A stretch of DNA of 50,823 nt from a virus (taxonomy: Duplodnaviria; Heunggongvirae; Uroviricota; Caudoviricetes): the IMG/VR virus record IMGVR_UViG_2721755725_000006. One strand, given 5' to 3'. Below are positions 18,001 to 24,000 of this stretch, in pieces. Position numbers: made by a program. Every line of letters begins with the position of its first letter. Positions within the stretch are counted from its first letter, which is position 1.

Positions 18001-21000
18001 CGGATAAACGCAGTGCCCGTGCGCAGCACGACGACTGGCTGAAGAGAGAGATACAGCGCGTATACGATGAAAATCATCAGGTGTACGGTGTGCGTAAAGT
18101 CTGGCGTCAGTTGTTACGGGAAGGAATCAGGGTGGCCAGATGTACAGTGGCACGTCTCATGGCGGTTATGGGACTTGCCGGTGTTCTCCGGGGTAAAAAG
18201 GTCCGTACGACCATCAGCCGGAAAGCCGTTGCCGCAGGCGACCGCGTAAACCGTCAGTTCGTGGCAGAACGACCTGACCAGCTGTGGGTGGCTGATTTTA
18301 CTTACGTCAGCACATGGCAGGGCTTCGTCTATGTGGCGTTTATCATTGATGTGTTTGCCGGATACATCGTGGGGTGGCGGGTCTCATCGTCTATGGAAAC
18401 GACATTCGTGCTGGATGCGCTGGAGCAGGCGTTGTGGGCCCGTCGTCCGTCTGGCACCATCCATCACAGCGATAAAGGCTCTCAGTATGTGTCACTGGCC
18501 TATACGGAGCGACTAAAAGAAGCCGGATTACTGGCATCAACAGGGAGTACAGGCGACTCGTATGACAACGCGATGGCTGAGAGCATCAATGGTCTTTACA
18601 AAGCGGAGGTAATACACCGTAAGAGCTGGAAAAACCGTGCAGAAGTGGAACTGGCCACACTAACGTGGGTGGACTGGTATAACAATCGACGATTGCTGGG
18701 AAGGCTGGGCCATACTCCTCCGGCAGAAGCAGAAAAAGCTTATTATGCTTCCATCGGAAACGATGATCTGGCAGCCTGAGTTCACAGATAAAACACTCTC
18801 CAGGAAACCCGGGCGGTTCAATGGGAGTGTAACCGGCCATCCTTTGTTGTATCCGGTGATGCTGGGAAAATAACCATCTCAGAAAATGGAAAAGTAACAC
18901 CGCCATCGCACCAGCATAGTGAGGTGCTCATTGAATTTGCCATTGATTACCTGAAGAACAATAAAAAGCAGGGGCTGATGAAGTGCATTGGTCGTTGCAT
19001 GGGATATCTGCAGATAGCTGCTGAGATTGAAGCGCTGGCCAGTGGTGCGGACAAGGATGCAGTTGTGCGGGAGGCTCTTCTTCGTGAGTTTGACAACCCG
19101 CCCTTTAAAAAAGTGCCGGCTTACTGGTTTCATCCAGGACTGACTTATCTTAAAGGACGTATATAAGCTGGCTCGTTATCTGTTGCCGATAAATCCTGAT
19201 AAATATCCATGAACACCAAAATCAAATACGGCCTGTCGGCTGCCGTTCTGGCGCTGATTGCCGCTGGTGCGCCTGCGCCTGACATTCTCGACCAGTTTCT
19301 GGATGAAAAGGAAGGTAACCACACCACGGCATACCGTGATGGTGCGGGTATCTGGACCATCTGCCGAGGTGCCATCATGGTGGATGGTAAGCCTGTGATT
19401 CCTGGCATGAAGCTGTCGAAGGAAAAATGCGACCAGGTTAACGCCATTGAACGTGATAAGGCGCTGGCATGGGTGGAGAAAAACATCAGAGTGCCACTGA
19501 CCGAACCCCAGAAAGCGGGGATTGCGTCATTCTGTCCGTACAACATTGGCCCCGGTAAGTGTTTCCCGTCGACGTTTTACAGACGGATTAATGCTGGTGA
19601 CCGCAGGGGAGCATGCGAGGCGATTCGCTGGTGGATTAAGGACGGTGGCAGAGACTGCCGTATTCGCTCAAACAACTGCTACGGTCAGGTCTCACGGCGT
19701 GACCAGGAGAGCGCGCTGGCGTGCTGGGGAATTGACAGATAAGCAGAATATTTTGCTGAAAAATGCGGTTTGCTCACACGGGCGGATAACACGAAATCCT
19801 GCGAACTGGCAAAAACTAAGTGAATAAAAGTAAAACCCCGTTTGTTGGCCGCAAGTGGGGTTTTGTGTTTCCTGACTCCGGAAAAGTCAAAGGAGAAAGT
19901 GTGTTTGATTTTAGCAAACTGATTCGGGAGATTCGAATGATGGCTGAAAAATTATCCACCTGGAAGTTCATCCTTATCTGGCTGGTGTTTGTGATTATGG
20001 CTTCCGGTTATTTCATTGGTCAGATACGCTGGTGGTGAAATGAACCGCGTACTGTGCGTGGTCATCATTGCCCTGCTGGTGGCCTGTGGTGCGCTTAGTC
20101 TGGGGCTGAATCATTACCGTGATAACGCCATAACCTACAAAGAGCAGCGCGATAAAAAAGTCAGTGAGCTGGAGCTGGCAAATGCAACCATTACTGATAT
20201 GCAGCAGCGCCAGCGTGATGTTGCTGCACTTGATGCCAGATACTCGAGGGAATTAGCCGATGCGAGAGCTGAAAATGAAACTCTGCGCGCTGATGTTGCC
20301 GCTGGTCGTAAGCGCCTGCGGATCAACGCCAACTGTCCAGGCTCCTTGCGTAAAGCCCCCATCACCTCCGGCGTGGATAATGCAACCGGTCCCCGACTGG
20401 CAGAAGCCGCTGAACGGGATTATTTCATCCTCAGAGAACGGCTGATGGCAATGCAGAAGCAACTGGAAGGAGCACAGGAATATATCCGTACCCAGTGTAT
20501 ACCGTGATGTTTTGTTACGAAGGTGTTACTGGTAACGTTAAGGTAATTTAACAAAGAGTCAGTTCCGGACTTTATAGTGTGCTCAGTTCATGGCCAAAAA
20601 CGATTTCTGTGATAAATATTTTGAATATTATTTACAGGTAAATGGAGTGGGGCGCATGGATAGAAATATTACAATAGAGTATGAAGTATATGCCCGTATT
20701 GTATGGGCAGAGAAGGCAAAAACATGGTAATTCCGTGTGTTGCCATGATACCTGATTGGCAGAATTGTTGTTTGGTTTTGAGTATATAGTCAGCGTCTTT
20801 TGTTCGGTAATTGCTCTTTCAATTAAAATGCCAGATATGATTTGCTTTTCTTTGTTGTTTAGTTTTTTTTTGTATATTATTTTTATTGTTTTTATATAAT
20901 TAGTTTTTTATTGTTGTCTTATTAAGGACGGTTAATTCAGGATGGCAGTCTGTAGATAAACGGAGGTTACTTATGCTACATGATCACCTGGCAGAATGTC

Positions 21001-24000
21001 TGGAGAAAAAAGGACTGTACCGGAGAGCAGCTGAACGATGGGCAAAAGTGATGGTACAGCTAAGTGATGACCAGAAAAGAAAAGTGGCGGCACAGAAACG
21101 AGCAGAGTGTTTGCGTAAGGCGCGCCGGACTCCGGTTTCACCGGTGAACCTGACCGAAATAAAACAAGCGGTCAACCGACTACATTCTGAGTTGGGAATG
21201 GGATTTGAAGAGCGGCGGGTATTCCGACGATATAAAGGGACAGGAGAACAGAATACGTCCGGAAACGCGCGGTCAAAAAAATGCTAAAAAATATCTGAGA
21301 GAGTTATTGCCTGTTACCATAAGAAAAAGCGACTTTAGTGGTCGCTTTTTGTGTCATATATAAGTCGTTTAAGTAAACCTGTCTGAACAGGTGCTCTGGT
21401 CGTGTTTGTCTTTGTTGGGTACAAATTGAGAATATTTTTCATTAATTAATCTTCTTCTGCAGGCTTCAATAACCCACGCTGAAAAATTTCCTGAACCTTT
21501 CAGATCAAGAGCGATGTTAATTTGTTCAATCATCTGGTTTGGAAATCGGATGTTGCGGGTTGTTGTTCTGCGGGTTCTGTTCTTTGATGACATAATGTTG
21601 CCCCATATTCAGTGTTGCTGATTTGTATTATCTGAAGTTGCTTTTACGTTAATTTGATGCAGATCAATTAATACGATACCTGCGTCATAATTGATTATTT
21701 GACGTGGTTTGATGGCGTAGATGCACGTTGTGACATGTAGATGATAATTATTATCATTTTACGGGTCCTTTCCGGCGATCCGACAGGTTACGGGGCGGCG
21801 ACCTCGCGGGTTTTCGCTATTTATGAGATTTTTTGAGGGGGAGTTGTTGTTTAATTGTTTGGCATATCTAATTGATAAGTAAGGTGAAAATAAAATAAAT
21901 ACAACAACCTTACGATGTGTTTTGATGTCGTCAATGCGAAAAATGTCAATGATATCAAATGGTTTTGTAAAAACACATGGTTGTTGTATCGCTTTTTATC
22001 GATGGCTTATGGAGAGGAGATGGCCTTTTTATTGAATAAAAGTGATATGGCCTCCTCCATCGGTATATCTGTTCAGGCATTTGATAAATGGGGCGTTCCT
22101 CCTGTTGAGCGTCGGGGGAGGGAAGTTTTTTATGACGTTAAAACTGTACTGGAGATAGATCGCGAGCGGCGACAACACAATCAGAGAATACCTGATGACG
22201 AGGGCGATCTGGAGGAAAGGCTGCTTCGGGCCAGAGCTGAACTGACAGAAGAACAGGCCGTAGCTCAAAAACTTAAAAATCAGGTAACCGAAGGTAAGCT
22301 TATTGACGCCGGATTCTGTATTTTTGCCCTCAGTAAGCTGGCAATGGCGTTATCCAGTACGCTTGATTCCATCCCTTTATCCATGCAGCGACAGTTTCCT
22401 GATTTAACACCGCGCCATCTTGACCATCTGAAAACCCTTATTGCTAAGGGGGCAAATCAGTGTGCGCGGGCAGGGGATAAATTACCGGATTTACTTGATG
22501 AATATATCAGAGCAACAACTGAATAATATGATGAGCGCTGTCACAACTGCATTACAGCCCCTGATAAGGGCATTGCCGGTGACGCCAGTTGAATGGGCTG
22601 ATCAAAATTATTATCTGCCTAAAGAATCTTCATATGGTGAGGGCGAATGGAAAACGCTGCCATTCCAGATCGCCATCATGAACAGCATGGGGAATGATCA
22701 GATCCGCACTGTTAATCTGATTAAATCTGCCCGTGTTGGCTATACAAAGATGTTGCTGGGGGTGGTCGGGTATTTTATTGAGCATAAATCCCGAAACAGT
22801 CTGCTTTTTCAGCCCACGGATTCTGCCGCTGAAGATTTTATGAAGTCTCACGTGGAGGCGACGATTCGGAACGTGCCATGCCTGAAAGACCTTTCCCCAT
22901 GGCTGGGTCGTAAACATCGTGACAATACTCTCACGCTGAAACGCTTTTCATCGGGCGTCGGTTTCTGGTGCCTGGGCGGCGCTGCCGCCAAAAACTACCG
23001 TGAAAAATCCGTGGACGTGGTCTGCTATGACGAACTTTCCTCGTTCGAGCCGGATGTCGAAAAAGAGGGCTCGCCAACCCTGCTGGGGGATAAGCGTATT
23101 GAGGGGTCGGTGTGGCCAAAATCCATTCGCGGCTCGACGCCTAAAATCAAAGGCACCTGCCAGATCGAAAAAGCCGCTAACGAGTCGGCGCATTTTATGC
23201 GTTTTTATGTGCCCTGCCCGCACTGTGGGGAGGAGCAGTATCTGAAATTTGGCGATGAGTCCACGCCTTTTGGGCTTAAATGGGAGAAGGACAGCCCTGA
23301 AAGTGTTTTCTACCTCTGTGAACATCATGGCTGCGTGATCCATCAGTCTGAACTGGACCAGAGCAACGGGCGGTGGATCTGTGAAAACACAGGCATGTGG
23401 ACCCGTGACGGTCTGACGTTTTTCAGCGCCCGGGGTGATGAAATTCCGCCGCCGCGCTCCATCACGTTCCATATCTGGACGGCGTACAGTCCGTTCACCA
23501 CCTGGGTACAGATTGTCTATGACTGGCTGGATGCACTGAAAGATCCCAACGGCCTGAAAACCTTTGTGAACACCACGCTGGGCGAGACCTGGGAAGAGGC
23601 CGTGGGCGAAAAACTCGATCACCAGGTACTGATGGATAAGGTGGTGCGTTACACGGCGGCGGTGCCTGCCCGGGTGGTTTATCTGACGGCGGGCATTGAC
23701 TCGCAGCGAAACCGTTTTGAGATGTATGTCTGGGGATGGGCTCCGGGAGAGGAAGCCTTCCTGGTGGATAAAATCATCATTATGGGGCGTCCTGATGAGG
23801 AAGAGACGCTGTTACGTGTGGATGCGGCGATCAACAAAAAATACCGCCATGCGGATGGCACCGAAATGACTATTTCCCGTGTCTGCTGGGACACCGGGGG
23901 GATCGATGGTGAAATTGTTTATCAGAGATCAAAAAAACACGGTGTTTTCCGGGTGCTGCCGGTAAAAGGCGCATCTGTCTATGGCAAGCCGGTGATCACC

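Follow-up and report, generated by a model that had tools for sequence, protein, structure and literature searches.

In enterohaemorrhagic Escherichia coli (EHEC), the regulator genes pchA, pchB and pchC are needed for LEE (locus of enterocyte effacement) to be fully expressed and for adherence (PMC4456613). Pch was previously found to activate the LEE1 promoter only under silencing by H-NS, StpA, Hha and YdgT, and to lower H-NS occupancy at LEE1 both in vivo and in vitro, which identifies it as an anti-silencer (PMC4764244). PerC of enteropathogenic E. coli (EPEC) is, like Pch, an activator of LEE1/ler, and LEE expression in EPEC depends less on it (PMC4764244). Of the remaining relatives, PchD and PchE reportedly have little effect on LEE, and PchE represses curli and flagella (PMC6265319). 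PchABC has been reported in LEE-positive strains only (PMC6724679) and is conserved in O111, where Ler and LEE have been reported as well (PMC2323221). Here, we describe a locus of this family in a 50,823-nt tailed-phage DNA (IMG/VR record IMGVR_UViG_2721755725_000006; the whole stretch is referred to as the window, and positions are those of the window). The region at 20508-21593 almost certainly represents pchB, an allele of the PchABC class of virulence regulator genes, on a self-contained moron cassette within an Sp11-like lambdoid prophage whose host is an EHEC of O111:H8 type. Its identity, anatomy and cassette boundaries are demonstrated in the present analysis, and the promoter and start-site positions proposed for it are transferred from the EDL933 locus by 99.6% homology. 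The gene itself lies as follows:

20973..21287, plus strand: pch gene, 104 aa, product identical to Sakai PchB and EDL933 WP_001302717

Comparison of the encoded protein with the Pfam PerC family (PF06069) gave a match of 148.8 bits (cut-off 22.6; E 5.4e-44), with residues 1-89 falling on profile positions 1-89 of 90. This full-length match, together with the identity to Sakai PchB, bears out the PerC-like Pch regulator proposed in a preliminary description of this DNA. The KGLYRRAAERW motif occupies residues 13-23, and A7, L10, E11, G14, R17, R18, A19, R22, W23, R36, R43, C46, G75 and R85 are invariant columns in a nine-sequence PerC/Pch alignment. When the alignment to PerC and PchA-E suggested in that description was run (named pch genes from the O157 Sakai genome; EPEC PerC from plasmid pMAR7), the window protein fell in group 1 (PchABC), with 100% identity to PchB and 99% to both PchA (L6V) and PchC (V58M), as opposed to 47% for EPEC PerC, 40% for PchE and 28% for PchD. 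PchA (ECs1091, Sp4) and PchC (ECs2737, Sp14) of Sakai are thus each one residue off, while the protein of Sakai PchB (ECs2182, Sp11), like that of EDL933_RS10075 (WP_001302717.1), is 100% identical. A basic C-terminal extension of 15 residues, the hallmark of group 1 Pch, is present in the window protein and absent from the 89-90-aa PerC, PchD and PchE. The exact sequence was found on at least 1000 public contigs, with one source label reading “PchABC family transcriptional regulator”. A structure model of the protein, built on a shallow alignment, was helical throughout (five helices) apart from a basic tail that was disordered, and its confidence was low (pLDDT 68, pTM 0.32).

The more distant relatives differ from the window gene in setting as well as in sequence. 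PerC, encoded by perABC on the EPEC EAF plasmid (pMAR7), belongs to the same Pfam family, its 47% identity extends over 84% of the length, and it shares the N-terminal LE-KG-YRRAA-RW motif; however, it has 89 aa, lacks the basic tail, and comes third in a plasmid operon that PerA controls, whereas the window pch is a prophage moron with its own promoter. PchD (ECs1388, SpLE1) and PchE (ECs1588, Sp7) are PerC-family proteins of the same species with 89-90 aa, but their genetic contexts differ from that of the window pch. As a separate observation, a 138-aa database protein (P0032) consists of an N-terminal small-terminase-like segment (PF03592) fused to a complete PchABC sequence; the fusion probably arose through rearrangement, or through faulty gene calling, at a pch locus.

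At the nucleotide level, several O111:H8 genomes match the 1.5-kb locus at 100% identity, O111:H- strain 11128 matches it at 99.9%, and the window aligns with strain E2863 at 99.2% identity across 41.5 kb. Long stretches match the pchB-carrying prophage Sp11 of Sakai at 99% identity (99.1% for 20073-21833), and 20506-21686 matches the EDL933 pchB locus at 99.6% (1181 nt). Sakai Sp11 pchB resembles the window locus in its position between Rz and cos, its pchB-type promoter block with TATATAAT, its terminator and its 74-aa neighbour. The two differ in background (O111:H8-like in the window, O157:H7 in Sp11), in a few point differences and in an upstream T-run that is 2 nt longer in the window; in addition, unlike Sakai Sp11, the window prophage has a copy of IS1203 within its lysis cassette and an element of the IS66 family following its tRNA genes. 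Among 5426 complete E. coli genomes, 673 contain the 465-bp region upstream of pch (median, three copies per genome), and E2863 holds a second copy of the pch leader. The matches to O111:H8/H- strains and the literature suggest that the host carries a LEE island, the window itself being free of LEE DNA.

The cassette and its surroundings comprise the following features:

20016..20507, plus strand: Rz i-spanin gene, last gene of the lysis cassette (Pfam Phage_lysis, E 1.5e-46), TGA at 20505-20507
20260-20445: Rz1 o-spanin open reading frame (ORF), embedded in Rz
20486..21455, no strand assigned: pch cassette (moron), about 970 bp, absent from lambda and Sakai Sp8 in this slot
20508..20972, plus strand: AT-rich intergenic region, 465 bp, mostly promoter-upstream DNA, the last 52-69 nt being the predicted 5' untranslated region (UTR)
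21324..21350, no strand assigned: hairpin AAAAAGCGACU-UUAGU-GGUCGCUUUUU, predicted to act as an intrinsic terminator in both directions, located where the convergent pch and DUF3950 genes meet (RNA fold)
21793..21804, plus strand: cosN, lambda 12-nt cohesive end GGGCGGCGACCT (alignment to joined lambda ends)
22020..22526, plus strand: terminase small subunit gene (Nu1 family), first head gene (Pfam Phage_Nu1; RefSeq annotation of the matching E2863 locus)

With Rz upstream and cosN (21793-21804) downstream, the moron lies, as first described, literally between lysis genes and cos, and the order Rz, pch, cosN/Nu1 recurs in Sp11 and Sp14. Its boundaries were drawn with blastn: homology to lambda (imm434 record) and to Sp8 ends within the final Rz codons, at 20485, and restarts at 21446-21459, within the 74-aa gene. 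Between these points lie the upstream region, pch, the hairpin at 21324-21350 and, from the 74-aa gene, some 25 codons at its 3' end. The lambda right-end homology then covers ~340 bp ahead of cosN, persists to ~21826 and diverges beyond. The cassette has the features expected of a moron, namely sharp boundaries against related phages, a distinct composition (33% vs 50% GC), a predicted terminator of its own and, by homology to EDL933, its own promoters. The hairpin has an 11-bp stem with A5 and T5 runs on its flanks, and the 81-nt segment containing it folds with a z-score of -2.7.

In lambda the same slot, between the Rz 3' end and the conserved cos-proximal DUF3950 ORF, holds bor and lambdap78, and Sakai Sp8 also has bor there. 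Both bor and pch are accessory cargo expressed in the lysogen and unrelated to phage growth; however, bor encodes an outer-membrane lipoprotein on the opposite strand, whereas pch encodes a transcription regulator and runs in the direction of the late operon. With a plasmid-borne variant of pch, whose protein is 78% identical, the window locus has nothing in common beyond the ORF and 28 nt upstream; the long upstream region thus belongs to the prophage form alone. Two further arrangements of the cassette were seen. In E. coli A25, a monkey isolate (record L011, 1500-3321), a diverged pch cassette, with a partly different leader, several amino-acid changes and the same 74-aa gene beside it, directly adjoins an HNH endonuclease gene and a different small-terminase gene instead of a lambda cos region, so the cassette plus DUF3950 gene can move between packaging modules. 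In Sakai Sp4 (record L003, 22131-24670), copies of IS629 and ISEc8 flank an inversion of the whole holin-endolysin-Rz-pchA segment, and IS629 truncates the DUF3950 gene; pchA therefore runs against the late operon, whereas pchB and pchC run with it.

The upstream region stands out by composition, with 33.1% GC at 20508-20972 compared to 50.4% for the whole window. Of the 465-nt segments in the 50.8 kb, only 5.6% are equally AT-rich, and those with lower values all lie at the effector-cargo end (44-49.5 kb). The AT-rich gap with long T/A runs noted in the preliminary description is therefore present at these positions, and its reported lack of ORFs holds for those of at least 60 aa but not for two small ones of 46 aa (20590-20730) and 47 aa (20756-20899). 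The 465 bp had also been taken for a transcribed leader, which for the most part does not hold: with 5' UTRs of 52 and 69 nt, as given by the EDL933 start sites, most of the region would be untranscribed upstream DNA. Among prophage alleles the distal 290 bp (20508-20796) are at least 97% conserved, and the block at 20797-20935 is the sole strongly variable upstream part between the pchB-type leader of the window and the pchA/pchC-type leaders. T runs in this block include T9 at 20863 and T5-T6 at 20880, 20889 and 20904. The promoter elements assigned to it are:

20797..20935, plus strand: T-rich promoter block, 22% GC and 57% T (six-allele prophage alignment)
20886..20921, plus strand: putative promoter P1, -35 TTGTTT at 20886-20891, 17-nt spacer, -10 TATTGT at 20909-20914, start A at 20921, 52-nt UTR
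20893..20904, plus strand: putative promoter P2, in pchB-type leaders only, TATATAAT box at 20893-20900 in the P1 spacer, start at 20904, 69-nt UTR

These assignments draw on a published Cappable-seq map of transcription start sites (TSSs) in EDL933 covering eight in-vitro conditions (PMC10469882 supplement). For EDL933 pchB (EDL933_RS10075) the map lists TSSs 1912653 (-52) and 1912636 (-69), each in all eight conditions (PMC10469882), and alignment transfers them to window positions 20921 and 20904, respectively. For EDL933 pchA (start codon 1271010, minus strand), the main TSS is 1271063 (-53), found in 8/8 conditions with read scores of 164-2240, and minor TSSs lie at -38 and -28 (PMC10469882). 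An antisense TSS is also mapped inside EDL933 pchA, at 1270844, 166 nt past the ATG and directed toward the promoter, in four of the eight conditions; its window equivalent would be ~21139 on the minus strand. Sakai pchA and pchC share with the window the 465-bp upstream region (scattered point differences outside one block), the P1 hexamers, which are conserved in all alleles, and the predicted anti-Shine-Dalgarno sequence. They differ in the promoter block (20797-20935), which lacks TATATAAT and has GCGTGG or CTGTGA at that position, and in the Shine-Dalgarno (SD) context (AAUCGGAGGUC vs AAACGGAGGUU). Consistent with a pchB-specific P2, the constitutive TSS at -69 is listed for the pchB locus only in EDL933, and the TATATAAT box may underlie the differential regulation of pchA and pchB. 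Prediction from sequence was of little help here: a simple promoter scanner returned no plus-strand site in the gap, and a position weight matrix scan produced many candidates in the T-rich block, with the real P1 ranked only seventh. The promoter question was settled by the published EDL933 start-site map.

The composition of the upstream region fits H-NS-type binding, and control by nucleoid proteins is plausible. H-NS on pch upstream regions is undocumented in the literature searched, and the pch loci are missing from the supplements of the H-NS chromatin immunoprecipitation paper. That the pch promoters fire in all eight in-vitro conditions argues against tight silencing.

Translation of the window gene may be subject to the structural control described for pchA, and the elements concerned are:

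20962..20966, plus strand: SD sequence GGAGG, 6 nt ahead of the ATG, read from the sequence
20996..21003, plus strand: predicted anti-SD AUGUCUGG, codons 8-11 (+24 to +31), which from folding could pair with the SD region

According to published work, an SD:anti-SD structure represses translation of pchA, and the prophage small RNA DicF opens this structure at low oxygen; DicF control is demonstrated for pchA only (PMC7769764, PMC7873438). Folding from the mapped 5' ends gave pairing between the SD and AUGUCUGG in pchA and, at some lengths, in the window allele. DicF (Sakai Sp4 copy) is complementary to the window over 7 bp (GAATGTC, 20994-21000), overlapping the predicted anti-SD. Such a site fits the published pchA model but does not count as evidence.

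Taken together, these elements suggest how the locus could work. The pch cassette follows Rz and would bring its own sigma-70-type promoters, ~50-70 bp ahead of the ATG, and a bidirectional terminator, so that pch should be expressible in the lysogen independently of phage late transcription. By analogy with the identical or near-identical O157 proteins, the window Pch would act as a LEE1/ler activator by relief of H-NS silencing; it would switch on ler, with Ler in turn switching on the type III secretion system of LEE as well as non-LEE effectors. Upstream of pch, the literature places LrhA, which acts differentially on pchA and pchB, and Lrp/butyrate with LeuO (PMC4456613), as well as NtrC/sigma-S (PMC10714755). 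From O157 pchA and pchB, the transcriptional inputs of the window copy would comprise LrhA, Lrp/butyrate, LeuO, sigma-S/NtrC and Rcs, and from pchA its translational input would be an SD:anti-SD hairpin opened by DicF at low oxygen. Expression of group 1 pch is reported to rise with the SOS response (PMC6265319), which in our interpretation could reflect read-through from the co-oriented late operon.

The 74-aa gene facing pch was assigned as follows:

21369..21593, minus strand: DUF3950 / YlcI-YnfO gene, 74 aa, N-terminal ~49 aa lambda backbone, C-terminal ~25 aa from cassette DNA
21619, minus strand: putative TSS of the DUF3950 gene, 26 nt ahead of the ATG, with a GATAAT-like -10 box (EDL933 1913351 mapped to the window, several conditions; PMC10469882)

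The preliminary description had placed this gene on the opposite strand just downstream of pch, which is correct (21369-21593), but had called the pair divergent, when the 3' ends in fact face each other and the genes are convergent. The protein matched DUF3950 (PF13132) at 66.6 bits (cut-off 25), NCBIfam YlcI_YnfO_N (NF041551) at 34.6 bits (cut-off 30) and phrog_949 (E 1.7e-31). Among 33 relatives the first ~49 residues are nearly invariant and the tails wholly different, and lambda encodes the same N-terminal domain ~200 bp from its right end. Between window and lambda, the first 49 codons show 12 synonymous and 3 nonsynonymous codon changes, which indicates a real gene under purifying selection. 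The gene had been counted as moron cargo; with its first ~49 codons conserved in lambda and only the C-terminal tail in inserted DNA, it is, as judged from these alignments, a separate phage-backbone gene near cos, only the 3' end of which came in together with the inserted cassette. The junction of the Rz-cos slot thus falls inside the DUF3950 gene, and each cargo rewrites the C-terminal tail (90 nt, 21369-21458 in the window). YlcI (DLP12) and YnfO (Qin) belong to the same family, and the 74-aa ORF adjoins the small-terminase gene and cos as in other lambdoid prophages, but the C-terminal 25 residues of the 74-aa protein are specific to pch-carrying prophages. The ribbon-helix-helix (RHH) likeness reported earlier found no counterpart in Pfam RHH families at E values up to 10 or among RHH chains in PDB sequence and profile searches; the protein may bind DNA in an RHH-like manner, close to cos or to the late region.

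Adjacency and a common bidirectional terminator could be taken to mean that pch and the DUF3950 gene form one two-gene module, for example with an RHH-type repressor controlling, or co-controlled with, pch. Both genes are transcribed in lysogens (EDL933), and the exact 74-aa protein including its tail accompanies pch in O111, O157 and others, even in the A25 cassette with its HNH and terminase packaging module. However, the DUF3950 N-terminal domain is ~91% identical in lambda and in many lambdoid phages without pch, the tail varies across the family with the neighbouring DNA, and the plasmid pch variant has in common only the ORF and 28 nt upstream, with no DUF3950 gene nearby in the (incomplete) plasmid annotation. 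We therefore regard a joint module as very improbable. Nor does it seem likely that the window pch is a redundant or silent passenger of a decaying prophage with no part in LEE control. Decay is evident in the matching E2863 prophage, which has two insertion sequence (IS) elements and a frameshifted tape-measure gene, and EHEC genomes usually carry about three pch copies, E2863 itself having the second leader. Against this, the window pch ORF is intact and identical to functional PchB; conservation extends to its promoter hexamers, to the context of its start sites, to its SD and to its terminator; the matching EDL933 locus (99.6%) is transcribed in every condition tested; and multiple pch copies are reported to have additive effects (Iyoda and Watanabe 2004).

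A further product encoded by the distal gap (20508-20796), either a small protein from the 46-aa ORF (20590-20730) or a small RNA, was given hardly any weight. None of the six prophage alleles compared interrupts the 46-aa ORF, which lies in the distal 290 bp with their conservation of at least 97% and matches phrog_2157 end to end (E 2e-37); yet the PHROG match shows only that gene callers had predicted it before, and tblastn against phage genomes found only identical copies and no diverged homologue. To judge from coordinates, it was apparently annotated in 2017 as EDL933_RS29835, with an internal TSS 48 nt from the computed start, but it has been dropped from current RefSeq annotations. In the pchA copy a TSS lies 45 nt ahead of it, although in one of the eight conditions and with a score of 2.9, compared to 164-2240 for the pch promoter. 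Moreover, its substitutions are 10 nonsynonymous vs 1 synonymous, it has no SD-like sequence ahead of its ATG, and it is missing from the Sakai novel small-gene list based on ribosome profiling, where multi-copy loci map poorly. The small RNA suggested for the leader in the preliminary description fared no better: the gap (20508-20972) had no Rfam match at the gathering score or at E values up to 1, the terminator scan placed its sole match at 21553-21573 and none in the gap, and folding was not unusual on either strand (z-scores -1.85 and -1.23), the only upstream start being the weak one at pchA. The 47-aa ORF (20756-20899) was rejected as a candidate: of the five other alleles, four interrupt it with stop codons, and Sakai pchB has no stop but a gap of 2 nt that shifts the frame.

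No evidence contradicting the identification as a pchB cassette turned up, but several observations weigh against parts of the account given above. A fold search with the Pch model yielded no informative match, the model being of low confidence. The prophage has two IS insertions, one of the IS66 family past its tRNA genes and an IS1203 separating the holin gene from the endolysin gene, which may impair read-through of the late operon into pch. Sequestration of the SD is predicted to be weaker and more variable than in pchA (unpaired probability 0.34-0.71 in the window vs 0.25-0.47). With 27 DicF matches of 7-8 bp in ~440 nt, the DicF site is not above chance; full-length DicF duplex energies were non-specific; and an Rfam scan found no dicF copy in the window.

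Elsewhere in the prophage, the IS3-family element (IS1203/IS629-like) lies at ~17560-18790 between the holin and endolysin genes, where it splits a small ORF and contains an ALIL frameshift pseudoknot (17847-17963); the same site is IS-free in O111 strain 11128, and the insertion probably hampers late-operon read-through and lysis. The IS66-family element (ISEc47-like; tnpA, tnpB and transposase, ~11060-13480) sits between the ileZ-argN-argO tRNA cluster (10607-10855) and a TerB-like gene. Rfam matches mark a sok antitoxin RNA (6141-6315) adjoining a Hok/Gef gene, and STnc100 (14168-14340) directly before a nanS-like esterase gene, the latter presumably a short PR'-proximal late-leader transcript. 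Past the tail-fibre genes lie two large AT-rich cargo genes (21-30% GC) at 43737-45893 and 46675-50076. The former encodes a 718-aa pentapeptide-repeat/SopA-like HECT ligase resembling NleL/EspX7, and the latter a 1133-aa DUF4765 protein equal in length to Sakai EspN. With NleL/SopA-like and EspN-like cargo beside pch, one prophage would deliver both a LEE activator and substrates of the type III secretion system.

The pchB cassette is already known, from O157 since 2004 and from O111 since 2007-2009, and its identification here adds no new biology. Two details have possibly not yet been described, although we hold this to be doubtful: the pchB-specific TATATAAT/P2 start, and the DUF3950 backbone gene with its moron-rewritten tail, perhaps encoding an RHH-like DNA-binding protein. 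If true, TATATAAT/P2 would supply a tangible cis element behind the reported difference in regulation between pchA and pchB; neither P2 nor the tail-swapping of DUF3950 changes the identity of the locus. The practical value lies in a correct annotation as a pchB allele with promoter, start sites and terminator, and in the assignment of the neighbouring gene to the phage backbone. Overall, the locus shows again that prophages deliver regulators besides toxins and effectors, and, PchABC being master switches of attaching-and-effacing virulence in EHEC, this copy would mark its host as a LEE-type pathogen.

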